Source: Balanoglossus misakiensis (lineage: Eukaryota > Animalia > Hemichordata). Taken from it: a stretch of 64,000 nt of DNA. Shown here piece by piece: positions 4,812 through 50,300 of the stretch (its first letter is position 1; the number at the start of each line of letters is the position of its first letter). The position numbers were made by a program, and so were the translations under genes. The stretch is from assembly GCA_040954595.2 (NCBI GenBank), contig CM082589.2:11606894-11670893 (forward strand). Reading direction: 5' to 3'. The notes below the pieces were generated by a model. That model was not told the DNA's origin and made no database searches. It saw only the letters and a list, made by a program, of their open reading frames with translations.

Positions 4812-7800
4812 TAGCTCTGCATGGCCTGGTTAATCAATGTTGACGCAAAGGTTGACCCCACCAAACACTCAAAATTAATGGGCACGACACTGGCCACTAG
4901 CTCTGCATGGCCTGGTTAATCAATGTTGACGCAAAGGTTGACCCCACCAAACACTCAAAATTAATGGGCACGACACTGGCCACTAGCTCTGCATGGCCTG
5001 GTTAATCAATGTTGACGCAAAGGTTGACCCCACCAAACACTCAAAATTAATGGGCACGACACTGGCCGCTAGCTCTGCATGGCCTGGTTAATCAATGTTG
5101 ACGCAAAGGTTGACCCCACCAAACACTCAAAATTGATGGGCACGACACTGGCCGCTAGCTCTGCATGGCCTGGTTAATCAATGTTGACGCAAAGGTTGAC
5201 CCCACCAAACACTCAAAATTGATGGGCACGACACTGGCCGCTAGCTCTGCATGGCCTGGTTAATCAATGTTGACGCAAAGGTTGACCCCACCAAACACTC
5301 AAAATTGATGGGCACGACACTGGCCGCTAGCTCTGCATGGCCTGGTTAATCAATGTTGACGCAAAGGTTGACCCCACCAAACACTCAAAATTAATGGGCA
5401 CGACACTGGCCACTAGCTCTGCATGGCCTGGTTAATCAATGTTGACGCAAAGGTTGACCCCACCAAACACTCAAAATTGATGGGCACGACACTGGCCGCT
5501 AGCTCTGCATGGCCTGGAAATCAATGTTGACGCAAAGGTTGACCCCACCAAACACTCAAAATTGATGGGCACGACACTGGCCACTAGCTCTGCATGGCCT
5601 GGAAATCAATGTTGACGCAAAGGTTGACCCCACCAAACACTCAAAATTGATGGGCACGACACTGGCCACTAGCTCTGCATGGCCTGGCTAATCAATGTTG
5701 ACGCAAAGGTTGACCCCACCAAACACTCAAAATTGATGGGCACGACACTGGCCACTAGCTCTGCATGGCCTGGCTAATCAATGTTGACGCAAAGGTTGAC
5801 CCCACCAAACACTCAAAATTGATGGGCACGACACTGGCCACTAGCTCTGCATGGCCTGGTTAATCAATGTTGACGCAAAGGTTGACCCCACCAAACACTA
5901 AAAATTAATGGCCACGACACTGGCCACTAGCTCTGCATGGCCTGGTTAATCAATGTTGACGCAAAGGTTGACCCCACCAAACACTCAAAATTAATGGGCA
6001 CGACACTGGCCACTAGCTCTGCATGGCCTGGTTAATCAATGTTGACGCAAAGGTTGACCCCACCAAACACTCAAAATTAATGGGCACGACACTGGCCGCT
6101 AGCTCTGCATGGCCTGGTTAATCAATGTTGACGCAAAGGTTGACCCCACCAAACACTCAAAATTGATGGGCACGACACTGGCCGCTAGCTCTGCATGGCC
6201 TGGTTAATCAATGTTGACGCAAAGGTTGACCCCACCAAACACTCAAAATTGATGGGCACGACACTGGCCGCTAGCTCTGCATGACCTGGTTAATCAATGT
6301 TGACGCAAAGGTTGACCCCACCAAACACTCAAAATTGATGGGCACGACACTGGCCGCTAGCTCTGCATGGCCTGGTTAATCAATGTTGACGCAAAGGTTG
6401 ACCCCACCAAACACTCAAAATTAATGGGCACGACACTGGCCACTAGCTCTGCATGGCCTGGTTAATCAATGTTGACGCAAAGGTTGACCCCACCAAACAC
6501 TCAAAATTGATGGGCACGACACTGGCCGCTAGCTCTGCATGGCCTGGTTAATCAATGTTGACGCAAAGGTTGACCCCACCAAACACTCAAAATTGATGGG
6601 CACGACACTGGCCGCTAGCTCTGCATGGCCTGGAAATCAATGTTGACGCAAAGGTTGACCCCACCAAACACTCAAAATTGATGGGCACGACACTGGCCAC
6701 TAGCTCTGCATGGCCTGGCTAATCAATGTTGACGCAAAGGTTGACCCCACCAAACACTCAAAATTGATGGGCACGACACTGGCCACTAGCTCTGCATGGC
6801 CTGGCTAATCAATGTTGACGCAAAGGTTGACCCCACCAAACACTCAAAATTGATGGGCACGACACTGGCCACTAGCTCTGCATGGCTTGGCTAATCAATG
6901 TTGACGCAAAGGTTGACCCCACCAAACACTCAAAATTGATGGGCACGACACTGGCCACTAGCTCTGCATGGCCTGGTTAATCAATGTTGACGCAAAGGTT
7001 GACCCCACCAAACACTCAAAATTGATGGGCACGACACTGGCCACTAGCTCTGCATGGCCTGGTTAATCAATGTTGACGCAAAGGTTGACCCCACCAAACA
7101 CTCAAAATTGATGGGCACGACACTGGCCACTACCTCTGCATGGCCTGGTTAATCAATGTTGACGCAAAGGTTGACCCCACCAAACACTCAAAATTGATGG
7201 GCACGACACTGGCCACTAGCTCTGCATGGCCTGGTTAATCAATGTTGACGCAAAGGTTGACCCCACCAAACACTCAAAATTGATGGGCACGACACTGGCC
7301 ACTAGCTCTGCATGGCCTGGTTAATCAATGTTGACGCAAAGGTTGACCCCACCAAACACTCAAAATTGATGGGCACGACACTGGCCACTAGCTCTGCATG
7401 GCCTGGTTAATCAGGGTTGACGCAAAGGTTGACCCCACCAAACACTCAAAATTGATGGGCACGACACTGGCCACTAGCTCTGCATGGCCTGGCTAATCAA
7501 GGTTGACGCAAAGGTTGACCCCACCAAACACTCAAAATTGATGGGCACGACACTGGCCACTAGCTCTGCATGGCCTGGTTAATCAATGTTGACGCAAAGG
7601 TTGACCCCACCAAACACTCAAAATTGATGGGCACGACACTGGCCACTAGCTCTGCATGGCCTGGTTAATCAATGTTGACGCAAAGGTTGACCCCACCAAA
7701 CACTCAAAATTGATGGGCACGACACTGGCCACTAGCTCTGCATGGCCTGGTTAATCAATGTTGACGCAAAGGTTGACCCCACCAAACACTCAAAATTGAT

Positions 7801-10800
7801 GGGCACGACACTGGCCACTAGCTCTGCATGGCCTGGTTAATCAATGTTGACGCAAAGGTTGACCCCACCAAACACTCAAAATTGATGGGCACGACACTGG
7901 CCACTAGCTCTGCATGGCCTGGTTAATCAATGTTGACGCAAAGGTTGACCCCACCAAACACTCAAAATTGATGGGCACGACACTGGCCACTAGCCCTGCA
8001 TGGCCTGGTTAATCAATGTTGACGCAAAGGTTGACCCCACCAAACACTCAAAATTGATGGGCACGACACTGGCCACTAGCTCTGCATGGCCTGGTTAATC
8101 AATGTTGACGCAAAGGTTGACCCCACCAAACACTCAAAATTGATGGGCACGACACTGGCCACTAGCTCTGCATGGCCTGGTTAATCAGGGTTGACGCAAA
8201 GGTTGACCCCACCAAACACTCAAAATTGATGGGCACGACACTGGCCACTAGCTCTGCATGGCCTGGCTAATCAAGGTTGACGCAAAGGTTGACCCCACCA
8301 AACACTCAAAATTGATGGGCACGACACTGGCCACTAGCTCTGCATGGCCTGGCTAATCAATGTTGACGCAAAGGTTGACCCCACCAAACACTCAAAATTG
8401 ATGGGCACGACACTGGCCACTAGCTCTGCATGGCCTGGCTAATCAATGTTGACGCAAAGGTTGACCCCACCAAACACTCAAAATTGATGGGCACGACACT
8501 GGCCACTAGCTCTGCATGGCCTGTTTAATCAATGTTGACGCAAAGGTTGACCCCACCAAACACTCAAAATTGATGGGCACGACACTGGCCACTAGCTCTG
8601 CATGGCCTGGTTAATCAAGGTTGACGCAAAGGTTGACCCCACCAAACACTCAAAATTGATGGGCACGACACTGGCCACTAGCTCTGCATGGCCTGGCTTA
8701 TCAAGGTTGACGCAAAGGTTGACCCCACCAAACACTCAAAATTGATGGGCACGACACTGGCCACTAGCTCTGCATGGCCTGGCTAATCAAGGTTGACGCA
8801 AAGGTTGACCCCACAAAAACACTCAAAATTGATGGGCACGACACTGGCCACTAGCTCTGCATGGCCTGGCTAATCAATGTTGACGCAAAGGTTGACCCCA
8901 CCAAACACTCAAAATTGATGGGCACGACACTGGCCACTAGCTCTGCATGGCCTGGCTAATCAATGTTGACGCAAAGGTTGACCCCACCAAACACTCAAAA
9001 TTGATGGGCACGACACTGGCCACTAGCTCTGCATGGCCTGGCTAATCAAGGTTGACGCAAAGGTTGACCCCACCAAACACTCAAAATTGATGGGCACGAC
9101 ACTGGCCACTAGCTCTGCATGGCCTGGCTAATCAAGGTTGACGCAAAGGTTGACTCCACCAAACACTCAAAATTGATGGGCACGACACTGGCCACTAGCT
9201 CTGCATGGCCTGGCTAATCAAGGTTGACGCAAAGATTGACCCCACCAAACACTCAAAATTGATGGGCACGACACTGGCCACTAGCTCTGCATGGCCTGGC
9301 TAATCAAGGCCTGGCTAATCAAGGTTGACGCAAAGGTTGACCCCACCAAACACTCAAAATTGATGGGCACGACACTGGCCACTAGCTCTGGCCTGGCTAA
9401 TCAAGGTTGACGCAAAGGTTGACCCAACCAAACACTCAAAATTAATGGGCACGACACTGGCCACTAGCTCTGGGCTGGCTAATCAATGTTGACGCAAAGG
9501 TTGACCCCACCAAACACTCAAAATTAATGGGCACGACACTGGCCACTAGCTCTGCCTGGCCTGGCTAATCAATGTTGACGCAAAGGTTGACCCCACCAAA
9601 CACTCAAAATTAATGGGCACGACACTGGCCACTAGCTCTGGGCTGGCTAATCAATGTTGACGCAAAGGTTGACCCCACCAAACACTCAAAATTAATGGGC
9701 ACGACACTGGCCACTAGCTCTGGGCTGGCTAATCAATGTTGACGCAAAGGTTGACCCCACCAAACACTCAAAATTAATGGGCACGACACTGGCCACTAGC
9801 TCTGCATGGCCTGGCTAATCAAGGTTGACGCAAAGGTTGACCCCACCAAACACTCAAAATTGATGGGCACGACACTGGCCACTAGCTCTGCATGGCCTGG
9901 CTAATCAAGGTTGACGCAAAGGTTGACCCCACCAAACACTCAAAATTGATGGGCACGACACTGGCCACTAGCTCTGCATGGCCTGGCTAATCAAGGTTGA
10001 CGCAAAGGTTGACCCAACAAAAACACTCAAAATTGATGGGCACGACACTGGCCACTAGCTCTACATGGCCTGGCTAATCAAGGTTGACGCAAAGGTTGAC
10101 TCCACCAAACACTCAAAATTGATGGGCACGACACTGGCCACTAGCTCTTCATGGCCTGGCTAATCAAGGCCTGGCTAATCAAGGTTGACGCAAAGGTTGA
10201 CCCCACCAAACACTCAAAATTGATGGGCACGACACTGGCCACTAGCTCTGGCCTGGCTAATCAAGGTTGACGCAAAGGTTGACCCCACCAAACACTCAAA
10301 ATTGATGGGCACGACACTGGCCACTAGCTCTGCATGGCCTGGCTAATCAAGGTTGACGCAAAGGTTGACCCCACAAAAACACTCAAAATTGATGGGCACG
10401 ACACTGGCCACTAGCTCTGCATGGCCTGGCTAATCAAGGTTGACGCAAAGATTGACCCCACCAAACACTCAAAATTGATGGGCACGACACTGGCCACTAG
10501 CTCTGCATGGCCTGGCTAATCAAGGCCTGGCTAATCAAGGTTGATGCAAAGGTTGACCCCACCAAACACTCAAAATTGATGGGCACGACACTGGCCACTA
10601 GCTCTGGCCTGGCTAATCAAGGTTGACGCAAAGGTTGACCCCACCAAACACTCAAAATTGATGGGCACGACACTGGCCACTAGCTCTGCATGGCCTGGCT
10701 AATCAAGGTTGACGCAAAGGTTGACTCCACCAAACACTCAAAATTAATGGGCGCGACACTGGCCACTAAGCTCTGGCATGGCTAATCAATGTTGACGCAA

Positions 10801-13022
10801 GGGTTGACCCCACCAAACACTCAAAATTGATGGGCGCGACACTGGCCACTAGCTCTGGCCTGGCTAATCAAGGTTGACGCAAGGGTTGACCCCACCAAAC
10901 ACTCAAAATTAATGGGCGCGACACTGGCCACTAGATCTGGCCTGGCTAATCAAGGTTGACGCAAGGGTTGACCCCACCAAACACTCAAATTTAATGGGCG
11001 CGACACTGGCCACTTGCTCTGGCCTGGCTAATCAATGTTGACGCAAGGGTTGACCCCACCAAACACTCAAAATTGATGGGCACGACACTGGCCACTAGCT
11101 CTGGCCTGGCTAATCAATGTTGACGCAAGGGTTGACCCCAGCAAACACTCAAAATGGATGGGCACGACACTGGCCACTAGCTCTGGCCTGGCTAATCAAG
11201 GTTGACGCAAGGGTTGACCCCAGCAAACACTCAAAATTAATACGCACGACACTGGCCACTAAGCTCTGGCCTGGCTTATCAATGTTGACGCAAGGGTTGA
11301 CACCACCAAACACTCATAATTGATGGGCACGACACTGGCCACTAGCTCTGGCTGGCTAATCAAGGTTGACGCAAGGGTTGACCCCACCAAACACTCAAAA
11401 TTGATGGGAACGACACTGGCCACTAACCTCTGGCCTGGCTAATCAATGTTGACGCAAAGGTTGACCCCACCAAACACTCAAAATTGATGGGCACGACACT
11501 GGCCACTAGCTCTGGCCTGGCTAATCAATGTTGACGCAAGGGTTGACCCCACCAAACAGTCAAAATTGATGGGCATGACACTGGCCACTAGCTCTGGCCT
11601 GGCTAATCAATGTTGACGCAAATGTTGACCCCACCAAACACTCAAAATTGATGGGCACGACACTGGCCACTAGCTCTGGCCTGGCTAATCAATGTTGACG
11701 CAAGGGTTGACCCCACCAAACACTCAAAATTGATGGGCACGACACTGGCCACTAGCTCTGGCCTGGCTAATCAATGTTGACGCAAGGGTTGACCCCACCA
11801 AACACTCAAAATTGATGGGCACGACACTGGCCACTAGCTCTGGGCTGGCTAATCAATGTTGACGCAAAGGTTGACCCCACCAAACACTCAAAATTAATGG
11901 GCACGACACTGGCCACTAGCTCTGCATGGCCTGGCTAATCAATGTTGACGCAAATGTTGACCCCACCAAACACTCAAAATTGATGGGCACGACACTGGCC
12001 ACTAGCTCTGCATGGCCTGGTTAATCAATGTTGACGCAAAGGTCGACGCCACCAAACACTCAAAATTAATAGGCACGACACTGGCCACTAGCTCTGCATG
12101 GCCTGGTTAATCAATGTTGACGCAAAGGTTGACCCCACCAAACACTCAAAATTAATGGGCACGACACTGGCCACTAGCTCTGCATGGCCTGGTTAATCAA
12201 TGTTGACGCAAAGGTTGACCCCACCAAACACTCAAAATTAATGGGCACGACACTGGCCACTAGCTCTGCATGGCCTGGTTAATCAATGTTGACGCAAAGG
12301 TTGACCCCACCAAACACTCAAAATTGATGGGCACGACACTGGCCACTAGCTCTGGCCTGGCTAATCAATGTTGACGCAAGGGTTGACCCCACCAAACACT
12401 CAAAATTGATGGGCACGACACTGGCCACTAGCTCTGGCCTGGCTAATCAATGTTGACGCAAGGGTTGACCCCACCAAACACTCAAAATTGATGGGCACGA
12501 CACTGGCCACTAGCTCTGGCCTGGCTAATCAATGTTGACGCAAGGGTTGACCCCACCAAACACTCAAAATTGATGGGCACGACACTGGCCACTAGCTCTG
12601 GGCTGGCTAATCAATGTTGACGCAAAGGTTGACCCCACCAAACACTCAAAATTAATGGGCACGACACTGGCCACTAGCTCTGGGCTGGCTAATCAATGTT
12701 GACGCAAAGGTTGACCCCACCAAACACTCAAAATTGATGGGCACGACACTGGCCACTAGCTCTGCATGGCCTGGCTAATCAAGGTTGACGCAAAGGTTGA
12801 CCCCACCAAACACTCAAAATTGATGGGCACGACACTGGCCACTAGCTCTGCATGGCCTGGCTAATCAATGTTGACGCAAATGTTGACCCCACCAAACACT
12901 CAAAATTGATGGGCACGACACTGGCCACTAGCTCTGCATGGCCTGACTAATCAATGTTGACGCATATGTTGACCCCACCAAACACTCAAAATTGATTGGC
13001 ACGACACTGACCACTAGCTCTG
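4812..13022. repeat. Satellite DNA, 86-bp unit with an 81-bp variant, roughly 95-100 copies
   Basis: Unit tagctctgcatggcctggttaatcaatgttgacgcaaaggttgaccccaccaaacactcaaaatt(a/g)atgggcacgacactggccac starts at 4812, 4898, 4984...; 5-bp-shorter units (ctctggcctgg) appear from ~9.4 kb; no unique spacers. Confidence 0.98.
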
Positions 13023-14057
13023 CACTACAGCCCAGTGTGCGCCATCTTTGTCCGATATTTCCGTCCCTACTTTCATGGCCTCATGAATAATGTATGAGGC
13101 GATTTGTTACCGGCAATGGAACGTTCGCCAGTTACAACAACATGAAAATGCCGGTAAGTATTACAAGACATTAAACGCATTTATAATGTTTACATCACGT
13201 TATCATATTCTTTAAGGTCTTAAGCTAGTATTGTCATCATTCTCTGATTTCTATTCATTTAATTTCACTGAAAATCTGACCTGGTTTCAAATCGCTATCA
13301 TTGGTAACTATGTAAACAAAGAACATAGCAACCACAACCAAGACAGAAAAACGGCCAAAAAAATCAAATCTTAATGCATTATTCAAAATTTCAAAACCAT
13401 GAGAGTGTTCCTAAGACGTTTGTAACTCAGTGTTTTGATTTTCTATCCCCAAAAAGGTCATATGTAGAAATTGATCCAAGCAGAAATTCATCGAGTTTGG
13501 CGCGTTCTGCCTGCGCGTCGCTCTACCATTGATTACAATGGCACAGCTACGCAAATGTCGACCGTCAGGCAAAACATATCGGCAGATTTCTCGAGTTTGA
13601 AGCGTGAACCTAAAAAAACAAAACGAGCAGATTGTTCCTTGATATCTATATAACATGTTGATATATCATTTTCGTTCTAAAATGTAAGAGTAAATATTTT
13701 GAACGAGAGAGTTCTTGCGACAGCGCTTTGAACGCCGCGCGCGTACAGCGTTTAGGCAAAGCAGACGCACACAGAAGGAACTGCGTCCACGCGCAATATA
13801 CGTAGATTGCAGCTGATTATACTCAATCAATGTTCCGGTACTTGCAACAGTATGCCAGTACTTCGCAAAATACACAGTCTTTTATATCATCAGGTCTTCT
13901 GTAGCGTCATTAAATACTGTCTGTTTGGAACTGTTTGACTGAAACAGCTTTCTAGATGACCTTTTATGTTTTCTACAACTTTTCACATTTATTCACATTT
14001 AGGAAATGCTCTATTGTGTAACTCCATCCCAGCTGTGCTCTGGATATAACTCAAATC

Positions 14058-14408
14058 ATGCCTAACAGGAAAAGGACAAACCATTTTGACATCGGGCAGT
14101 ATGCAGTCCAACAAAAAAAAGCCAGAGAAATAGCTAGAGACATACAACTTCAACAGCTGTTAGATGCTGAGTTAGCTGCAAAGACACTGCCAGAAAAGGT
14201 TAAGAGCAAGTCAGAGAATAGATACAAGCTAGGGGCATGGGCAAGAGAGAGAAAGCGTAGACGTGAGGAAGAGGTAGCTCAGTACAGAGAGAAAATGCAG
14301 AAATTAGATGCAAAGAGGAGACTAGTCGACAGGGCCAGTAAGCAACTAAACAGGCTAGCAAAGAAGCAAAGGAGATTAGCTGGAAATAGGGTTAAGCTTA
14401 ATCAGGAG
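14058..14408 (+). CDS. Coding exon 1 of the transposase (basic, coiled-coil/NLS-rich, 117 aa)
   Basis: ATG 14058; donor GAG|GTAAGG at 14408/14409 is phase 0 and joins in frame to acceptor TAAAG|ATT at 15235/15236 (..NQE|IADLTSPKK..). Confidence 0.65.
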
Positions 14409-14631
14409 GTAAGGTAATTATATAGAAGGAATTTAGCTTCATTTCAGATTTTCACAAGATTTATGATTACAAGCAGAATAGGAAAATATCCACCAAATTA
14501 AAGTTTGTATACTTTAAATTATATTACAACTAAGTGAATCATAAAACATTTTGACCTTGCTTTAATGTATATGATATGATTTTATGTGTGTTTGTTTTCT
14601 AAATTCTGAACTACAGCTTTGAAACACCTCC

Positions 14632-15203
14632 CTGCTTGACCTTGGCATAACACTGGGGTTTCCATTTATGCATATTGCTTGCTCATGTGACATTGCCTCT
14701 CTGTTTGACCTTGGCATGACACTGGGATTTCCATTCATGTGTATTGCTTGATCATGTGATATTCTCTCTCTGTTTGACCTTGGCATGACACTGGGGTTTC
14801 CATTCATGTGTATTGCTTGCTCATGTGACATGGCCTCCATGTTGACCTTGGCATGACACGTGGGTTTCCATTTATGTGTATTGCTTGCTCATGTGACATG
14901 GCCTCCATGTTTGACCTTGGCATGACACTGGGGTTTCCATTTATGTGTATTGCTTGCTCATGTGACATGGCCTCCATGTTTGACCTTGGCATGACACTGG
15001 GATTTCCATTCATGTGTATTGCTTGATCATGTGATATTCTCTCTCTGTTTGACCTTGGCATGACACTGGGGTTTCCATTCATGTGTATTGCTTGCTCATG
15101 TGACATGGCCTCCATGTTTGACCTTGGCATGACACTGGGGTTTCCATTCATGTGTATTGCTTGCTCATGTGACATTGCCTACCTGTTTGACCTTGGCATG
15201 ACA
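14632..15203. repeat. 69-bp minisatellite (~8 copies) in the predicted transposase intron
   Basis: ttgaccttggcatgacactggg recurs at 14705, 14774...; produces the repetitive 23-aa-period ORFs 14562-15175 on the minus strand. Confidence 0.92.
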
Positions 15204-15235
15204 ATGAAAATCTGTTTTGTATTCATTTATTAAAG

Positions 15236-17442
15236 ATTGCAGATTTGACATCCCCAAAGAAACAGAAGTGGGTTCATAAAAGCAGCCAGGTTTGTGCTAA
15301 TAACAGTGAATGCCTCACACTGTCCAGAAGTCAGCAACATGAACGCAGAAGTCAGACTCTTCATGCAGCTACAGTCATACACCAGTCATCATCAGGAACA
15401 GATATATCTGCAGGGAGACATGTCAGTGCAAATCCACCAAAATCAGCTCTTGATGGGCTATGGTATACTTTGATCAACAGTGCCACTCCACGTCAAATGG
15501 AAAAGTACCTTCAATCATCAATGAAAATAAATGAATTGGTCATACCAACTTTGATAAAGAAATCAATATCTGAATTTGAGAAAAGTGAAGGTAATTTGAC
15601 TAGGAGTGTGCAAGTGTTGTATCAGAATGGGGTTTTGTCAAAACGCAAATACAATGCCTTACGTAATAGTGAGTTGAATCTGTCTAAATTAAAACAACCT
15701 AGAAAAGTGTTGCAATTTCACTTTAGGTGTAACATACCAAGGTTACTTTCCTACAACAAGGTCACTGAATATACACGTGGTTTAGATATAGGAAGTCTTG
15801 AACCAATTGTAACAGATGCAAACAAAGTAGTGGGTATGAAGCGAAATACAGAGCAGATGCTCTTTAAAGTTGCTGACATGTATCTTTGCTTGAGTGAGCA
15901 CCACCCTAACATCCTAAATTGGTTTGGCAAACCGAAGGGCACTTTCCAACTTGCTGTTGGTGCTGATGGGGCTCCTTTTGGAAAATATGGTCAGGCAACT
16001 TCCTGGCTTGTCAGTTTCATCAATGTGGGCCACAGATTAGCAAGCCCTGATGATAATTTCTTGTTGCTAGGGGCTAATCTGAAGGAAGATGACCCAGTCC
16101 TGATAGATTATGCTAAAAACCTAGCCAAAGAGTTTGAGATCATAGAGGCCAAACAATACACTTTACATGGCCTGAGTGTAAAGTTTAATGTATCTTTGCT
16201 GCCATTTGATCAAAAGGGATTAGCCTCAGTTTCTGGTGAGTTATCTAATGCTGCTGAGTATTTCAGTTCCTTTGCTAATGTAACAAAAGGTAGCATAGAT
16301 GAAATAGGGGCAGATATAGGGCCAGGGAAATTTTGGTCAGAGTGGAGCTATAAGCAGTGGCAAAATTCAAAGCAAATTTGACAAAGAAAACAGGTAAGCC
16401 TGAAACATCGACAGATCGCTCTAAGGTCACACGTTTCATTGCCTCCAGAAAATCCCGACAGGAATATATTCCACCCCTGGGTAAGTATATACAGTGTGCC
16501 AAGATAGAACCCCTACATCTAAAAAACAATGCCTGGCAGTATTTCTTTCAAAGGCTTCTTACTGATGCTGTGGCTAAGACTGACCAAAAAGTCATTGACC
16601 ATGGTGTGAAATTAGAAAAGCTACCACCAAATTCATGCCTGTACAAATTCCTGCATACACTAAAATATACAGTGAGAGCAGGGAAACTATACAATCAAAT
16701 TGTCAAATATTTTGCTGAGAATAAGGTTAGTACCCATGCCCAATCAGTGAGAGTTCACCGCTTTACAGGGGAAGAATCAAGGAAGTTGGCATGGTCTTTT
16801 ATGTCACTGATAGAGTGTTTTAGGGAACCCGGTATCAGTGCACAGGTGAGAGCGAAATTGTCCCTGTATGGTTACATTGGTGTCCTACTCAGAGATATAA
16901 CATCTCTCTGTTCCAGGTTTACCCTACATGAGAGAGATATTGTAGTACTAAGGCAGAAGTGCAAATGGTACTTCAATTTGCATGCGTTATTTCTGACCGT
17001 AAACAATACTATTTGGCATATAGGATATGTTGTTCCGTGTCATGCATCTCAAATCCACCAGCAGTTCCAAATGGGGCTTGGGCTTAATACAATGGAGGGC
17101 AGGGAGGCAAAACATCAGCGCCTTCTGGAATACAGCAATAATTCCACCCCTCAAAATAGATGGCCACTAATTTTCAGACATGAGAATGTATTGTTGTACT
17201 GGTTACGCATGCGAGACCCCGCTTCAGATAACTACAGGGGGGATGGGAGGTCAAATGCCTCCAAAGTAATAAAGTACATCCCAGACAAATGCTTTGATGA
17301 CCCATCATACTGTTATTGTGGGAATGTAAAGGAAGAGTTGTCAAATTCCTGTGAAATATGCAGCAGTGAATTTATGTCAGAAATAAAACAGTCTGCAATT
17401 AGTGGTAAGATCTCAAAAAAACTAAAAAAAATAATGAAATAA
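15236..17442 (+). pseudogene. RAG1/Transib-like DDE transposase core, one frameshift near 16357 (~850 aa if spliced and repaired)
   Basis: Motifs collinear with the RAG1 core: GADGAPFG (cf. SCDGMG, D600), PFDQKGLASVSGELSNAAEYF (cf. [21 protein letters not shown], D708), IEPLHLKNN (cf. IDALHCDIG), FTGEESRKL (cf. MNGNFARKL), GLGLNTMEGREAKH (cf. SIGAWASEGNESGN, E962); C-terminal CxC..CxxC; ORFs 15245-16381 and 16357-17442 overlap in different frames. Confidence 0.75.
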
Positions 17443-17862
17443 AATGTGAAAGTTTGAATTTCATGATTCAAAACAATTATTACTGTACATGAAATGTACC
17501 AGATAGTTTTAGATTTGTATATAACTGTAAGAGAGTTTGTTGTAAATAATCTTTCATTATGAATGTCACAGATTTTGTGCTGCTTGTATTGTATTGTTCA
17601 AAATATGTATATAGCTTTTTAATCATCCTTTGAAACTAGCTGCTTATATCAGCTCTGTAGATAACCATGTTTCAAAATAAGTGAATAAAAACTGAATGAT
17701 AAATGATTCACCCACAGCTATTCAGTTCCTATAAAACATGTTTTTCTTTTTTAATTTTGCTTGGACATGCAACGATGCATGAATTCAAATGGACTGACAA
17801 AAAGTAATATAGTCAGTTCCAAGAACATGAAAAAAAATTTCAACAACAGTCTAAATATGATT

Positions 17863-18483
17863 TCACAAATGCTGAGCAACACCATGTTTGTTCCAGCATC
17901 CAAAATGGAAATGTATTGTCACTGTCTCGGCTGATTTCCTGTATCTGACAATCATAGGTTTATCTTCGGTGCAGATAACTTCCACCCGCTTACCCTTTAC
18001 TGTCTTCACCAGAAGTTGTTGGTTTTCATAGTTGACACCTCTACCCAGCACGTAATTCACTTTGTTGATCCAGGTAAATCGAAAGGTAGCAATACATGGA
18101 GTTTCCCGATCATAAATTCCCATTGAATTACGGGTAGCGCACTTTCGAAATACATCGAAAACTTCCATAGGAACATTCCTACCAAAACTGCACTTCCATG
18201 GGTTGCGCACTGAGGGTGATGGCTTCATTCTCTGCATAATTGTTGAGCGCCAGTGACACATCTCCCGTTCGAATACAGGATACACCGGAATCTGCTGCAT
18301 CTTCGCAAGCTCCACCATCGTTGCACTACGTTTGCGAACTGTTACATCAACAGCAGCATCGAGATCATCAAAACAATCATGTAGGTTGATGGAACGGTCG
18401 ATATTTGTCCTCAATAACTGAAATTTGGCCTCACGCAGCTTACGTTTCACTGTTTTAGAAACATCGATCATGGACGCCGCCAT
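17863..18483 (-). CDS. Intact 206-aa protein of unknown function, convergent with the transposase inside the TIRs
   Basis: Uninterrupted 621-nt ORF with strong start context AAAATGGCGGCG, ~105 bp inside the right TIR; no kelch or PHD motifs recognised. Confidence 0.7.
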   Translation of the reverse strand: MAASMIDVSKTVKRKLREAKFQLLRTNIDRSINLHDCFDDLDAAVDVTVRKRSATMVELAKMQQIPVYPVFEREMCHWRSTIMQRMKPSPSVRNPWKCSFGRNVPMEVFDVFRKCATRNSMGIYDRETPCIATFRFTWINKVNYVLGRGVNYENQQLLVKTVKGKRVEVICTEDKPMIVRYRKSAETVTIHFHFGCWNKHGVAQHL

Positions 18484-21400
18484 TTTGTATATACGATGCT
18501 AGGAACGTGACCCCAGCATATGACCTCAATTAACATATTTCCGCTTCGCGGAATAGCGGACAAATGAACACACTTCTGGGCCGCAGTGCTGCATTTTTGG
18601 AGTGGTCGAAAGTTTTAACATACAATCAACATGTCATATATGATCAGGGCACCAAATTCGAAGAACAAAGGTTTTTTTATTTTTTTCTAAAAATGACATT
18701 TTCAAGGAAAATTTGGTAAAACGCAATTTCGTCTGCAGTGAGCCAAATTAGACTGTATTTTGTGGAATTTGTATCGATATATACATACGAAGAGCATTCT
18801 ATACTCCATCAGATTTCCGAAAATGTAGAAAACAGGTATTTTTTGTAATTTTCAAAAATTTACCATTTTGACCAAATTGTGGCTAAAATTGTTATTTTCG
18901 TGTTGAATGCCGCCAGTGTCACTGCTTTTAAAAGTCATCAAAACTTTTAACATACAAGCAATTGTTTATATATGATCAGGTCACCGAATTAAAAAAATAA
19001 AGAATGTTTTCCCTAAAAATGACCTTTTTGGTGCAAAAACGAATAAAACGCAATTTTGTATTAAATCAGCTCATTCAGAGTGCATTTTTTATAATCAGCA
19101 CCATTTTTTACATATAATGGAAATTTCATACATCATCAGATATCCAAATATGAAAAAATGATTTAGATTTTAGATGATTGTCCAAAATTAGCTGATATCT
19201 AATAAATGTAGTATTGAACCGTTCCGTCCCCCCCCCTACATTATATGCGGTACGCCGATGTCAGCTTACCCGGCAGTACTGCAGGCCGTGCCCCCAACTA
19301 ACGTCGGTGTTTGAAACGCCCTGTTAAATTCGGGCTCTCTCTATAAATTGACAGGCAATAATGCAGTCCTACCCGAACAAATGTCGAGTGTTGACCCGCT
19401 GTGACTTTCCCTCTTCGGTTTGCCCGACTTAGCCAACGTCTTTGTACTAGAGTGTCGGGTCTTTTGCAGAGCCAGGCCGAAGGAAATCCGAGTAGATCAA
19501 CGTGGTCTCTGTACGCGTGTTTCTGCTCTAGAGTGTCGGGTCTTTTGCAGAGCCAGGCCTAAGGAATTCCGACTTGATCAACGTTGCTAACGAACGCTAG
19601 TGTCTGTCATGGTGTGCCGGGGTTTTAGTCGAGCCAGGCCGTAGGAGATCTGACTTGATCATCGTGGTCAATGTACGCGTGTTTCCGCTCTAAAGTGCCG
19701 GGGCTTCAGCTAAACCAGGCCGTAGGAAATCCGACGTAATCACCTTTGATAACTTCCGCCAGTCTGTGTCATATAGAGCCGGTGCACCAGCCGAGTCACG
19801 CCGTAGGAAATCTGACTTGATCAACGTGGTCAATGTACGCCTGTTTCTGCTCTAGAGTGCAGGGGCTTCAGCTAAACCAGGCCGTAGGAAATCCGACGTA
19901 ATCACCGTTGATAACTTCCGCCAGTCTGTGTCATATAGAGCCGGTGCACCAGCCGAGTCACGCCGTAGGAAATCTGACTTGATCAACGTGGTCAATGTAC
20001 GCCTGTTTCTGCTCTAGAGTGCCGGGGCTTCAGCTGAGCCAGGCCGTAGGAAACCCGACGTGATTACCGTTGTTAACTTACGCCAGTCTGTGTCCTATAT
20101 GTAGTGCCGGGGCATCAGCCGTGCCAGGCCGAAGGAAATGTGAGTAGATCATCGTGGTCTCTGTACGCGTGTTTCTGGTCTATAGTGCCAGGGCTTTAGC
20201 CAAGCCATGCCGTAGGAAATATGACTTGATCAACGTTGCTTACTAACGCTAGTGTCTGTCATAGTGTGCCGGGGTTTTAGTCGAGCCAAGCCGTAGGAGA
20301 TCAGACTTGATCAACGTGCTCTCTGTACGCGTGTTTCTGCTCTAGAGTGCCGGGGCTTTATCCAAGCCATGCCGTAGAAAATCTGACTTGATCACCGTTG
20401 CTAACGTACGCTAGTGTCTGTCATATTGTGACGGAGATTTAGCCGAGCCAGGCAGTAGAAAAATCGACTTGTTCAACGTTAACAGTGTGCAACTGTTTCT
20501 GCTCTAGAGTGTCAGGGTTTTAGCCGACTTATGCTGTAGGAAATCTTAGTTGATGAACGGGAATTCAATGTTAGAAAACCCGTGTGGAAAGTATCTCTAC
20601 CCGTTTGAAACTAAGAAAAGAATTTATTCTTATTTATTTTGTAAAAAAGACAATTTTTCGAGAGAAAAAAAGTCGAAAATGGTAATTTTTTCTTGGGTGA
20701 TTCAAATTATACCGCCTTTTCTGGAATTTGCAGCACTTTTTACAAGAGAACGACACTTCATGCTCCATAACATTTCCGAAAATGAAGAAAAGAGTTAATT
20801 TTTTAGGATTTTTCAAAAATTTACCATTTTTGTCAAAATATGGCCAAAATGGCTATTTTTACTTGAATTCCGTCAATATCTTTGCATTTTTGGAGTGGTC
20901 GAAAGTTTTAACATACAATCAACATGTCATATATGATCAGGGCACCAAATTCGAAGAACAAAGGTTTTTTTTATTTTTTTTTCTAAAAATGACATTTTCA
21001 AGGAAAATTTGGTAAAACGCAATTTTGTCTGCAGTGAGCCAAATTAGACGGTCTTTTGTGGAATTTGTATCGATATATACATACGAAGAGCATTCTATAC
21101 TCCATCAGATTTCCGAGAATGTAGAAAACAGGTATTTTTGTAATTTTCAAAAATTTACCATTTTGTCCAAATTGTGGCTAAAATTGTTATTTTCGTGTTG
21201 AATGCCGCCAGTGTCACTGCTTTTAAAAGTCATAAAAACTTTTAACATACAAGCAATTGTTTATATATGATCAGGTCACCGAATTAATAAAATAAAGAAT
21301 GTTTTGCCTAAAAATGACCTTTTTGGTGCAAAAACGAATAAAACGCAATTTTGTATTAAATCAGCTCATTCAGAGTGCATTTTTTATAATCAGCACCATG

Positions 21401-44309: not shown

Positions 44310-47300
44310 AGGGGCACAAGCCTATCGGGCTTGTGCCCCTATTGGTATTGTTGGAATATTTGGGGGCACAAGCGCCCTCAGGCGGCTTGTGCCCCCATTG
44401 GTATTGTTGGAATTTTTCTTTATTAGGGCCCAAGCGCATACCAGCGCTTGGGCCCTATTGGTTTCGTTGGGGTTTTTAGGGCCCAAGCGCATACCAGCGC
44501 TTGGGCCCTATTGGTTTCGTTGGGGTTTTTCTGTCTTTCTTTCTTTCTTTAGGGCCCAAGCGCAAGCAAGCGCTTGGGCCCTATTGGTTTCGTTGGGGTT
44601 TTTCTTTCTTTCTTTCTTTCTTTCTTTATTCTCCTGTCCATTTTTTATCGCTCTAGATCTCAGACACCGCTGCAGGTACAGTTCTCAAACTTGCTACAGT
44701 GGTCAAGGTCAATGAGTAGTCGTGCATTGAACCCATGAATTTTTAATTAGTCACGTGACATGGCGGCCATATTGGATTTTCTGAAAAAATGCAAATCTCA
44801 TATCTCAGAAACTACAAGTCAGATCAACTTCAGATTTGGCGTGCAGGTAGTCTACCTTCTGCCCATCATTTTTGTCATTGGATATTTTGCTGTCAATGTT
44901 GCAGTTTTTTTGCTACAGTTGTTTTTCTGAAATCTGGTCAAAATTTCAAAAATCTTCTTCTCCAGAACGGGCGATAACGGAGTCACGCGGTTTGGGGTAT
45001 GGGGTCACCTAACTGAGGTCTATCAAGTTTGTGAAGATCATTGTGATTGGTCGAAGATTATGGCGGCCATATTGGATTTTCGAAAAACCATAGTAAAACT
45101 CCCAAAATCTTCTACTCCAGAATGGGCGATAACTGAGTCACAAGATTCGGGGAGTAGGGTCACTACACAGATGTCTATCAAGTTTGCAAAGAACATTGTG
45201 ATTCGTCGAAGATTATGGCGGCCATATTGGAATTTGTAAAAAGCATCGAAAAATTGAAATTCCTTTTTCTAGTCTAAAAATTGATAGCATAGAAATTCTT
45301 TGTATGGATATCAATCGTCATGTGACTAAAATATGTTGCAAATTTTTTGGCAATTTTCACATGACCTTTGACCTATTTTTCACATGTTATTTTTTCTGCA
45401 TATCTAATTCCAGGCTAACCTATTGGGCTAGATGTTTGGTTTTTGATGCATGTGGATAAGTGTGTGATCAAAATATTTTGCTACTTTCCATGACCCCTTT
45501 GACCTCTGCTTACCTCATTAATTATGTGCATAGCTAATTACAGGCGAACCAATAGAGCTAGAGGTTTGTTTTTTGTTGGACATGGACCAGTATGGGTAAA
45601 AAAAAAATGCACAAATGTTGGGTGACCTCTGGTGACCTTTGACCTACTTTCGCATATCTCAACATCCAGAGCAGATACAGCCTTGGCATTTGGCAGGATG
45701 GGACCTAAAAGTAAAGCCAAATTTTTGGGTCACCTGTGACGCCTGCTGACCTCATTAAATATGCACATACCTAATTGACGCGAACCAATAGAGCTAGAGT
45801 TTTGGTTTTTGTTGGACATGGCCCAGCATGGGTCAAAATTTTTTGCCCAAATGTTGGGTGACCTCAGGTGACCTTTGACTTACTTCACCCTATTTCAGCA
45901 GCAGAAATACACACATCCTTGTTATGTCATGAGATAATACATCCGATAGACAATTCCGTTTCTTCTCATTCATACTGTGCATATATAATTCAAGATCAGC
46001 GCTTGGGCCCGACAATGCTGCTCGCAGCTTTAATTATTCTTGGTTCCATTCTTTATCGCTCTAGATCTCAGACACCGCTGCAGGTACAGTTCTCAAACTT
46101 GCTACAGTGGTCAAGGTCAATGAGTAGATGTGCAGTGACTTGTGAATATTTAATTAGTCACGTGACCTGGCGGCCATCTTGGATTTTCTGAAAAAATGCA
46201 AATCTCAGATCTCAGAAACTACAAGTCAGATCGACTTCAAATTTGGCATGCTGGTAGACTACCTTCTGCCCATCATATTTGTAATTGGAAATTATGCTGA
46301 CAAAGTTGCAGTTTTTTGCTACAATTTTTTTTCTGAAATCTGGCTTAAATTTCAAAAATCTTCTTCTCCAGAACCAGTGATAACCGAGACACGGGGTTTG
46401 CGGTATGTGGTCACCTAACTGATGTCTATCAAGTTTGCGAAGATCATTGTGATTGGTCCAAGATTATGGCGGCCATATTGGATTTTCGAAAAACCCTAGT
46501 AAAATTTCAAAAATCTTCTTCTCAAGAACCAGCGATAACCGAGTCACAAGATTTGGTGTGTGTGGTCATTAAACAGATGTCTATCAAGTTTGCGAAGAGG
46601 AATGTGATTGGTCGAAGATTATGGCGGCCATATTGGATTTTGTGAAAAACAATTAAAAAGTAAAAATTCCCTTTCTAGCCTAAAAATTGATAGCACAGAA
46701 ATTCTTTTTATGGATATGAATCATCATATGACAAGAATAAGCTATAAATATTTTGGTAATTTTGGCAATGACCTTTGACCTACTTTTGACGCATCATTTT
46801 TCTGCATATCTAATTCCAGGCTTACCAATAGGGCTATAAGTTTGGTTTTTGATGTATGTGGATTTGTATGTGATCAAAAAATGTTGCTACTTTTCATGAC
46901 CCCTTTGACCTCTGGTGACCTCATTAAATATGCGCATACCTAATTAATGATGAACCAATAGACCTAGAGGTTTTGTTTTTGTTATACATGGACCAGTATG
47001 GGGTCAAAATATTTTGCCCAAATGTTGGGTGACCTCGGGTGACCTTTGACCTACTTTTGCATATCTCGACATCCACAGCAGATACAACCTTGGCGTTTGG
47101 AGGTATGGGGCCATAATGAAAAGCCAAAGTTTTGGGTCACCTTTGACACCTGCTTAACTCATTATTTATGTGCATACCTAATTCCGGGCTAACCAAAAGG
47201 GCTAGAGGTCTGGTTTTTGTTGGACATGGACCACTATGGATCAAAATTTTCTGCCCAAATTGTGGGTGACCTCTGGGTGACCTTTGACCTACTTAACACT

Positions 47301-50300
47301 ATATCAACACCAAACATAGATATAACCTTGATATTTCATGGGATAAAACACAGCATTATGTTTCTACTCATTAATTATGTGCATATCTAATAATCTGATC
47401 AGATAATAGAGCTTGGGCCCGGACAATGCTGCTTGCAGCTTTAATCTGTCTTTCCTTCTTTCTTTCTTTCTTCTTTCTTTATTCTTCTGTCAATTCTTTG
47501 TCGCTCTAGATCTCAGACACCACTGCAGGTACAGTTCTCAAACTTGCTACAGTGGTCAAGGTCAATGAGTAGTCGTGCATTGAACCCATGAATTTTTAAT
47601 TAGTCACATGACCTGGCGGCCATCTTGGATTTTCTGAAAAAATGCAAATCTCAGATCTCGGAAACTACAAGTCAGATCAACTTCAAATTTGGCGTGCAGG
47701 TAGACTACCGTCTGTCAATCATTTTTGTAATTGGAAATTATGCTGACAAAGTTGCAGTTTTTTTGCTACAATTTTTTTTCTGAAATCTGACTTAAATTTC
47801 AAAAATCTTCTTCTCCAGAACCGGTGATAACCGAGACACGGGGTTTGGGGTATGTGGTCACCTAACTGATGTCTATCAAGTTTGCGAAGATCATTGTGAT
47901 TGGTCGAAGATTATGGCGGCCATATTGGATTTTCGAAAAACCCTAGTAAAATTTCAAAAATCTTCTTCTCAAGAACCGGCGATAACCGAGTCGCAAGATT
48001 TGGTGTGTGTGGTCATTAAACAGATGTCTATCAAGTTTGCGAAGAGGAATGTGATTGGTCGAAGATTATGGCGGCCATATTGGATTTTGTAAAAAGCAGT
48101 GAAAAATTAAAATTCCTTTTTCTAGTATAAAAATTAATAGCATACAAATTCTTTTTATGGATATCAATCGTCATATGACTACAATATGTTACAAATTTTT
48201 GGCGATTTTTCACATGACCTTTGACCTACTTTTCACACATTATTATTTCTGCATATCTATTTCCAGGCTAACCTATAGGGCTAGACGTTTTGTTTTTGAT
48301 GCATGTGGATTAGTGTGTGATCAAAATATTTTGCTACTTTTCATGACCCCTTTTGACCTCTGCTAACCTCATTAATTATGTGCATAGCTAATTACAGGCG
48401 AACCAATTGAGCTAGAGGTTTGGTTTTTGTTGGACATGGACCAGTATGGGGTCAAATTTTTTTGCCCAAATGTTGGGTGACCTCGGGTGACCTTTGACCT
48501 ACTTTTGCATATCTCGACATCCACAGCAGATACAGCCTTGGCGTTTGGAGGTATGGGGCAATAATGAAAAGCCAAAGTTTTGGGTCACCTGTGACACCTG
48601 CTTTACTCATTATTTATGTGCATACCTAATTACGGGCTAACCAAAAGGGTTAGAGGTCCTGTTTTTGTTGGACATGGACCACTATGGGTCAAAATTTTCT
48701 GCACAAATTTTGGGTGACCTCAGATGACCTTTGACCTACTTAACACTATATCAGCACCAAACATAGATATAACCTTGATATTTCATGGGATAAAACACAG
48801 CATTATGTTTCTACTCATTAATTATGTGCATATCTAATAATCTGATCAGATAATAGAGCTTGGGCCCGGACAATGCTGCTTGCAGCTTTAATTCTTTCTT
48901 TCTTTCTTTCTTTCTTTATTCTTCTGTCATTTCTTTGTCGCTCTAGATCTCAGACACCACTGCAGGTACAGTTCTCAAACTTGCTACAGTGGTCAAGGTC
49001 AATGAGTAGTCGTGCATTGAACCCATGAATTTTTAATTAGTCACATGACCTGGCGGCCATCTTGGATTTTCTGAAAAAATGCAAATCTCAGATCTCAGAA
49101 ACTACAAGTCAGATCGACTTCAAATTTGGCGTGCAGGTAGACTACCTTCTGTCAAACATTTTTGTAATTGGAAATTATGCTGTCAATGTTGCAGTTTTTT
49201 TGCTACAATTTTTTTTCTGAAATCTGGCTTGAATTTCAAAAATCTTCTTCTCCAGAACCGGTGATAACCGAGACATGGGATTTGGGGTATGTGGTCACCT
49301 AACTGATGTCTATCAAGTTTGCGAAGATCATTGTGATTGGTCGAAGATTATGGCGGCCATATTGGATTTTCGAAAAACCCTAGTAAAATTTCAAAAATCT
49401 TCTTCTCAAGAACCGGCGATAACCGAGTCACAAGATTTTGTGTGTGTGGTCATTCAACAGATGTCTATCAAGTTTGCGAAGAGGAATGTGATTGGTCGAA
49501 GATTATGGCGGCCATATTGGATTTTCTTAAAAATGATTAAAAAGTAAAAATTCCCTTTCTAGCCTAAAAATTGATAGCACAGAAATTCTTTTTATGGATA
49601 TGAATCATCATATAACAAGAATAAGCTATAAATATTTTGGTAATTTTGGCAATGACCTTTGACCTACTTTTGACGCATCAATTTTCTGCATATCTAATTC
49701 CAGGCTAACCAATAGGGCTATAAGTTTGGTTTTTGATGTATGTGGATTTGTATGTGATCAAAAAAATTTGGTACTTTTCATGACCCCTTTGACCTCTGCT
49801 GACCTCATTAAATATGCGCATACCTAATTACAGATGAACCAATAGACCTAGAGGTTTTGTTTTTGTTGGACAGGCCAAGTATAGGGTCAAAATTTTTTAC
49901 CCAAATTTTGGGTGACCTCTGGTGACCTTTGACCTAATTTCGCAAATCTCAGCATCCACAGCAGATACAGCCTTGGCGTTTGGAGGTATGGGGCCATAAT
50001 GAAAAGCCAAAGTTTTGGGTCACCTGTGACACCTGCTTAACTCATTATTTATGTGCATACCTAATTCCGGGCTAACCAAAAGGGTTAGAGGTCTGGTTTT
50101 TGCTGGACATGGACCACTATGGGTCAAAATTTTCTGCACAAACTGTGGGTGACCTCTGACCTACTTAACACTATATCAGCACTAAACATAGATATAATCT
50201 TGATATTTCATGGGATAAAACACAGCATTATGTTTCTACTCATTAATTATGTGCATATCTAATAATCAGATCAGATAATAGAGCTTGGGCCCGGACAATG

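Follow-up and report, generated by a model that had tools for sequence, protein, structure and literature searches.

To which transposon lineage does an element belong that carries a RAG1-like transposase tail to tail with a gene other than RAG2, and what does the second gene do? The question is raised by a locus in the hemichordate Balanoglossus misakiensis (NCBI GenBank assembly GCA_040954595.2, contig CM082589.2, positions 11,606,894 to 11,670,893 of the forward strand). This stretch of 64,000 nucleotides is referred to as the window, and positions are counted from its first letter. Positions 13023-18588 form a 5.57-kb unit bounded by terminal inverted repeats (TIRs), in which a plus-strand transposase gene converges with a small minus-strand open reading frame, ORF2. 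The unit belongs to a real two-gene lineage of the RAG1/Transib/CACTA group that is widespread, occurring in several marine animals, and apparently has no name; it carries an unrelated partner gene and has lost a zinc motif. We consider it probable that it is a frameshifted copy from a CAC-ended cut-and-paste lineage that makes 3-bp target-site duplications (TSDs), with a DDE transposase of RAG1/Transib fold and an ORF2 that likely serves as a non-enzymatic helper.

The original prediction, made from the letters of the window, had proposed such a TIR-bounded unit with two convergent genes, and the unit stood up to measurement. The left end, CACTACAGCCCAG at 13023, and the right end, CACTGCGGCCCAG as the reverse complement from 18588, are identical at 11 of 13 positions. 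The TIR is imperfect and about 43 bp long; in an anchored alignment the two ends scored 14, against a maximum of 7 for 20,000 random 44-mers. Among the 1,973 CAC-starting positions of the window, the right end was the top-scoring partner of the left end after the self-match. The pairing was measured by this anchored test, unanchored local alignment of the 300-bp ends being uninformative. The features of the unit are as follows.

13020..13022, no strand: left flank CTG, a putative 3-bp TSD, at the end of an 86-bp satellite array (4812-13024).
13023..13065, plus strand: left imperfect TIR, beginning CACTAC.
14058..14408, plus strand: predicted transposase exon 1, 117 aa, basic, free of cysteine, with a putative GT splice donor at 14409.
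14409..15235, plus strand: intron predicted from the sequence, with phase-0 donor and acceptor and 8.4 copies of a 69-bp minisatellite (14627-15203).
15236..16357 (end approximate), plus strand: transposase core part 1, 65% identical to the homolog P0001, with catalytic D at 15965 and 16208; YFSSF at 16259 replaces C(2)C.
16354..17442, plus strand: transposase core part 2, after the frameshift, 60% identical to P0001, with H at 16516 (EPLH), H at 17041 and catalytic E at 17104.
17311-17361, plus strand: C-terminal CxC...CxxC motif of core part 2.
17863..18483, minus strand (start at 18483): ORF2, 206 aa, intact, the conserved convergent partner, of an unnamed family.
18545..18588, minus strand: right imperfect TIR, beginning CACTGC, about 105 bp upstream of the ORF2 start.
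18589..18591, no strand: right flank CTG, a putative TSD, within a different high-copy repeat.

Exon 1 and the core in its two frames add up to a transposase of about 850 aa. By inspection, the exon 1 stretch HFDIGQYA resembles the N-termini of the homologs P0017, P0015 and P0012. The reading frame breaks near 16354-16360, where some 6-7 codons of P0001 have no counterpart in the window copy. A contig from an element-bearing run, possibly of the source sample, crosses the break with zero differences; the break is therefore no assembly slip, sequencing error was rejected as its cause, and the window copy is dead. It is unable to make transposase, and it could move in trans if its ends still work.

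Searches with a C-terminal piece of the window transposase retrieved 32 long homologs, and a profile built from these, with 7,994 candidates scored, recovered at least 394 transposase clusters. The named homologs, all annotated as uncharacterized or hypothetical, come from Ptychodera flava (60-65% identity), Nematostella, Exaiptasia, Actinia, Actinostola, Dendronephthya, Paramuricea and Lineus. No relatives were found in viral contigs. The one match in prokaryotic genomes, the locus L081, stands in a record titled as a bacterial metagenome-assembled genome (MAG) contig; since the element lies inside a 294-bp tandem satellite, this is likely animal DNA binned into a MAG and not a prokaryotic occurrence. 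Sequence searches of Pfam and the PDB with transposase pieces and profiles gave nothing family-wide: nothing below E 1.3 in the PDB, and no transposase match at E 0.01 in Pfam for any of 34 transposase sequences. The fold was tested on an AlphaFold2 model of P0001, an intact homolog 60-65% identical to the window copy (predicted local distance difference test (pLDDT) 86.8). Foldseek matched this model to RAG1 (E 4e-12), HzTransib (1.5e-7), BbRAGL (4.7e-6) and the P element (5e-3). The structure search VIA likewise placed RAG1 first (Z 21.2, 465 residues aligned, root-mean-square deviation 4.1), followed by BbRAGL and HzTransib (both 19.1), the P element (10.6) and Hermes (5.4), at 8-13% sequence identity between the model and its structural matches. 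The transposase is thus predicted to have the RAG1/Transib core fold. The likeness to RAG1 that had been claimed for this element holds for the predicted fold and the order of the catalytic residues and does not extend to sequence.

The catalytic triad is nearly invariant in 136 homologs (D181 in 136, D262 in 136, E566 in 135). After the second D, the available text of PMC12730594 places a C(2)C motif as a shared signature of the CACTA/Chapaev/Transib/RAG1 group, and the accessible part of PMC4914335 identifies its residues as zinc ligands in the ZnB domain of RAG1. This motif is present in 0 of the 136 homologs, which carry Y/F-F/P-S-x-F in its place, a loss that the original prediction had not mentioned and that was found here. 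In the H(3-4)H motif before the catalytic E, the second His is kept in 134 of 136 homologs and the first in 70, with Tyr at the first position in the window copy. Conserved Cys residues occur at the C-terminus only, where CxC...CxxC is kept in 128-133 of the 136. An aromatic YFSxF core, in place of zinc, probably holds the zinc-binding domain of the transposase, and the C-terminal CxC...CxxC probably forms a new zinc knuckle.

A metagenome scan yielded 209 related stretches, the best 80 of which were kept as loci (45 families at an identity of at least 88%). Downstream of the transposase, 33 of these 80 loci have a minus-strand match to the window ORF2 alone (31 at E<1e-4), and an ORF2 profile finds it in 34. 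Where at least 1400 bp of downstream sequence is available, which is so for 41 loci in 23 families, the profile finds ORF2 in 33 loci (16 families); it is present in every one of the 26 loci whose right end lies 900 bp or more downstream. The profile search detected no full-length ORF2 outside the downstream position in the 80 loci. Homologous transposases thus generally carry a convergent ORF2, as the claim of a two-gene element had implied. A full hidden Markov model scan extended the ORF2 family to 761 clusters at 50% identity, whereas a word-based search with ORF2 alone returned no homolog; in ten clusters inspected, the sole organism-labelled member is a hypothetical protein of Actinostola. 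ORF2 is unrelated to the transposase profiles, and Pfam and PDB sequence searches with it gave nothing family-wide. A PP_kinase match (E 6e-5) in one of 18 ORF2 members was treated as chance.

The two genes have travelled together. Four clades recur in both the transposase tree and the ORF2 tree of 17 pairs (Mantel rho 0.60, p 1e-4). ORF2 is under purifying selection, with a ratio of nonsynonymous to synonymous substitution rates (dN/dS) of 0.17-0.36 in six unsaturated pairs; three further pairs are saturated. It diverges much faster than the transposase (pairwise identity 12-69% vs 34-83% in the 17 pairs). An AlphaFold2 model of ORF2 (pLDDT 94) predicts an N-terminal helical hairpin followed by an alpha/beta domain and no kelch propeller, in agreement with the earlier claim that the partner is unlike RAG2. 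The family is basic (median isoelectric point 9.4) and has a conserved C-terminal YGxWNxxGxPQH patch; its alignment contains no acidic residue conserved above about 68% and no conserved Cys/His finger. Foldseek found no match to the model in the PDB at E 0.001 or better. Its weak rows (YER067W, RnlA, YwmB, METTL16 KA1 and the AP2 appendage, with template-modelling (TM) scores of at most 0.25) are folds that we take to be TBP-like, and a viral library gave one row (E 1e-4, TM 0.21). In a wide VIA search only the N-terminal hairpin was matched (Z up to 7.3), the alpha/beta domain being barely probed. The modelled fold is possibly new. Because it is unrelated to that of RAG2 and the transposase is distant from RAG1, ORF2 was probably acquired independently of RAG2.

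The ends of relatives begin with CAC, mostly as CACGC(C/T)G(G/A) and also as CACGG. The CACT ends originally put forward are therefore true of the window copy and are not a trait of the lineage. In relatives, as in the window, some 80-135 bp separate the right end from the ORF2 start. Ten contigs from seven families have both ends clear, leaving out L018, L046-L048, L062 and L065, in which an end is degenerate, unmatched or at the contig edge. Four of the ten show an exact 3-bp TSD (GAT, AGC, ATT and TAG; binomial p 2e-5 if independent), and none shows a 4-5-bp TSD. The clearest insertion is the 8,542-bp element of L081, which has a 15-bp perfect TIR and interrupts the 294-bp satellite; comparison with empty units shows exactly ATA duplicated. 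Sister contigs with different flanks establish mobility. A domesticated host gene was rejected by the ends, the TSDs and the varied flanks. Two side observations concern these loci: in L045-L050 the right-end TIR recurs in degenerate form 845 bp inward of the left end, immediately following an ORF2 fragment (L050:3240), and an unrelated long ORF at L027:7714-8881, which has a DG motif like that of a transposase, is likely another mobile element.

The nick-hairpin route of excision followed by strand transfer has been described for RAG, BbRAGL and HzTransib (in the available part of PMC10629977). By analogy, the transposase would bind the CAC ends, excise the element by the same route, leaving hairpins on the flanks, and insert it with a 3-nt stagger; ORF2 would be a cofactor of the transpososome or of its DNA and would have no catalytic role. 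We favour, with fair confidence, a role of ORF2 as a transpososome subunit or a cofactor binding end or target DNA. ORF2 could instead be a host-facing passenger, with anti-silencing or regulatory activity, that aids survival of the element without taking part in cutting or pasting. This reading accounts just as well for linkage and purifying selection, and the rapid divergence of ORF2, together with inverted ORF2 fragments in six families that hint at RNA-level regulation centred on ORF2 (see below), speaks for it; the position and orientation of ORF2 are, however, retained across all four clades, and its basic character and conserved C-terminal patch are as expected of a nucleic-acid- or partner-binding cofactor. 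We judge a host-facing function unlikely, and a role other than these two has a slight probability. A complex prediction for the L003 transposase with its own ORF2 scored 0.00, alignments not being used and the partner fold being uncertain.

Ten elements, one per family, have a left end that could be located, and six of them carry the inverted fragments: pieces of the element's own ORF2, 31-339 bp long and 84-96% identical, in the 5' non-coding part. All nine pieces are inverted relative to ORF2 and derive from different parts of the gene in different families; compared with ORF2, their ratio of nonsynonymous to synonymous differences (pN/pS) is 0.56. They were located at the following positions.

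L002:569-746
L019:3705-3938
L050:3128-3234
L070:806-903 and 1727-1813
L065:282-472
L081:4777-5172

No such fragment was present in L003, L071, L077 or the window copy. As read from the sequence, a read-through transcript over a fragment and ORF2 would fold into a hairpin; the fragments are a possible source of self-silencing or a by-product of repair.

The repeats that flank the window copy are not the same: to the left is an 86-bp satellite, to the right another high-copy repeat, and CTCTGCAT is common to both at the break. The flanking CTG/CTG, read originally as a 3-bp TSD, is therefore by itself no proof of a single insertion, and the 3-bp TSD rests on the relatives. For this copy only, the ends may stem from two insertions, or from a deletion next to the element driven by the element itself, with CTG/CTG reflecting target preference. 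We regard this as a real possibility, a little below even: the two flanking repeats and the shared CTCTGCAT at the break suit it, whereas the same repeats also occur joined without the element, an 8-bp microhomology junction could predate the insertion, and the TSD of the family is 3 bp whichever account holds here. The element-free junction appears in one contig from run X2, which reads CTG, then its palindrome CAG, then CGG; it was not seen in run X1. Under the cut-and-paste reading it fits a hairpin-opening footprint with a palindromic, P-nucleotide-like addition of 3 bp.

Some further observations concern the window copy and its surroundings. All X1 and X2 contigs placed on the window differ from it at the single bases 17185, 13618 and 14012; the contig base at 17185 gives the conserved HEY motif, and the window may carry another allele or an assembly error there. 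From 13274, where they have a loose end, to about 14700, variant contigs reach about half the depth, which suggests a second, partial and diverged copy of the 5' part of the element elsewhere in the sample. The window is dense in repeats: the 86-bp satellite spans 8 kb (4812-13024), at least seven dispersed arrays of an 81/162-bp unit occupy 19447-63169, and 155-bp units are repeated at 44949-52478.

Several points weigh against reading the unit as a member of a two-gene, RAG-like, 3-bp-TSD lineage. The ORF2 profile was built partly from the same loci that it counted, and 8 of the 41 long-enough loci have no significant ORF2; two of these, L034 and L043, show a weak C-terminal remnant, and L081, a relative of a third (L012), has ORF2 about 4 kb downstream. 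At L011:3164 and L030:1498 an end-like motif lies 129 bp after the transposase match, possibly a one-gene or deleted form. The clades shared by the two trees follow from physical linkage and so do not demonstrate functional coupling. Six of the ten two-ended contigs have no 3-bp match, though two pairs of them share the left flank and differ on the right, as collapsed multicopy contigs would. The footprint is one short contig from one of three runs, was placed on a different satellite unit once more units were offered, and could also have arisen by slippage at the junction. Of the four zinc ligands in RAG1 ZnB (accessible part of PMC4914335), two are gone with C(2)C, so that RAG-type chemistry cannot be assumed.

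The lineage could be an animal EnSpm/CACTA (CMC) family filed under a Repbase or Dfam label, with ORF2 as an accessory gene. The lineage is present in Nematostella, the repeats of which have long been curated, and CAC..GTG ends with a 3-bp TSD have served to file elements as EnSpm (available text of PMC12730594). On the other side stand the lack of any Pfam transposase match among the 34 sequences and the uncharacterized or hypothetical labels of the named homologs. We think such an entry unlikely; an unpublished one in Repbase, held to be just as unlikely, is the main risk to novelty. The literature searched, outside which lay Repbase, Dfam, Repbase Reports and bioRxiv supplements, gave no description of the lineage and no family of the same architecture, in line with the distinct lineage first proposed. 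It is not described in the accessible portions of PMC8245031 and bioRxiv 10.1101/2021.09.26.461848, and two lineage motifs were not found in the supplement of PMC12730594, the tree files of which were covered in part only.

A highly derived RAGL offshoot, in which an unrelated gene took over the place of RAG2L, would have inherited the convergent layout instead of reaching it independently. Apart from that layout, RAG1 chains top both structure searches, and the host phyla overlap those of RAGL (as listed in the available part of PMC7204232). Identity to RAG1 is, however, only 8-12%, BbRAGL and HzTransib have the same Z of 19.1, about 2 below RAG1, and the lineage has no 5-bp TSD, ZnB cysteine pair, Cx2Cx3GHx4C tail or N-terminal zinc finger. 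Such descent is very improbable.

To our knowledge, RAG2 is the only known partner of the RAG1/Transib enzyme core in a convergent layout. A further lineage that combines this core fold and tail-to-tail arrangement with an unrelated partner offers a direct test of the partner's purpose and of convergence in layout. How the two-subunit RAG recombinase arose from a one-gene Transib is a standing question (accessible part of PMC10629977). That the core persists without half its zinc site and with a 3-bp stagger bears on the setting of TSD length by target bending. The transposase clusters (at least 394) and 761 partner clusters, among which those checked had no Pfam match, are candidates for re-annotation as mobile-element genes, and intact elements such as L003 exist for assay. 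A larger claim is advanced only tentatively: an unnamed superfamily-level branch of the RAG1/Transib/CACTA group, in cnidarians, ribbon worms and hemichordates, would have lost the shared zinc site and independently recruited a partner of possibly new fold to the RAG2 position, where it would serve as a genuine subunit of the transpososome. Nature would then have run the RAG1+RAG2 experiment a second time, with copies repeatedly building inverted ORF2 fragments that could self-silence.

Among known systems, RAGL/ProtoRAG comes closest in layout, with a convergent gene pair inside CAC-starting TIRs, the predicted RAG1 core fold, the D-D-E order and overlapping host phyla. As defined in the available text of PMC7204232 (RAG2L partner, TSD and zinc motifs), it differs in its 5-bp TSD, against 3 bp here (four of ten contigs and L081), and in RAG2L, a six-bladed kelch protein with a PHD, against a 206-aa ORF2 predicted to be helical plus alpha/beta. 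The present lineage also lacks the four ZnB ligands (C(2)C in 0/136) and N-terminal zinc fingers, and its tail is CxC...CxxC, not Cx2Cx3GHx4C. Transib shares a predicted RAG1-core-like fold with D-D-E (Z 19.1) and CAC-starting TIRs; the canonical form makes a 5-bp TSD, whereas the lineage makes 3 bp, has lost C(2)C and carries a conserved second gene. Some Nozomi-related Transib make 3-bp TSDs but have G-starting TIRs (accessible part of bioRxiv 10.64898/2026.08.26.747230). The CMCT clade (EnSpm/CACTA, Chapaev, Chapaev3, Mirage, Plavaka, ESTA and Lanisha), by the termini, TSD, C(2)C and H(3-4)H given in the available text of PMC12730594, is alike in CA..TG termini, a TSD within 2-5 bp, a DDE core with a large insertion and the second His of H(3-4)H (134/136), and unlike in C(2)C (0/136), the first His (only 70/136) and the convergent partner of an unnamed family. 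Within it, EnSpm/CACTA shares CAC..GTG ends with a 3-bp TSD. The moss Lanisha was rejected as an identity, as it has C(2)C. Chapaev and Chapaev3 have an N-terminal Chapa zinc finger (PMC4411706, in the part available), of which none was seen here by inspection: exon 1 of the window copy has no Cys, and the N-termini of the homologs inspected are not Cys-rich. Kolobok (Kol0 with KolX) also pairs a DDE transposase with a second protein gene; it was rejected as an identity, since its TTAA TSD, RR..YY termini, C/DxxH signature and Cys-rich KolX (accessible part of PMC9587614) are all absent from the lineage. The lineage thus stands apart from RAGL, canonical Transib, Chapaev and Kolobok as these are defined, yet it probably works like Transib and RAG.

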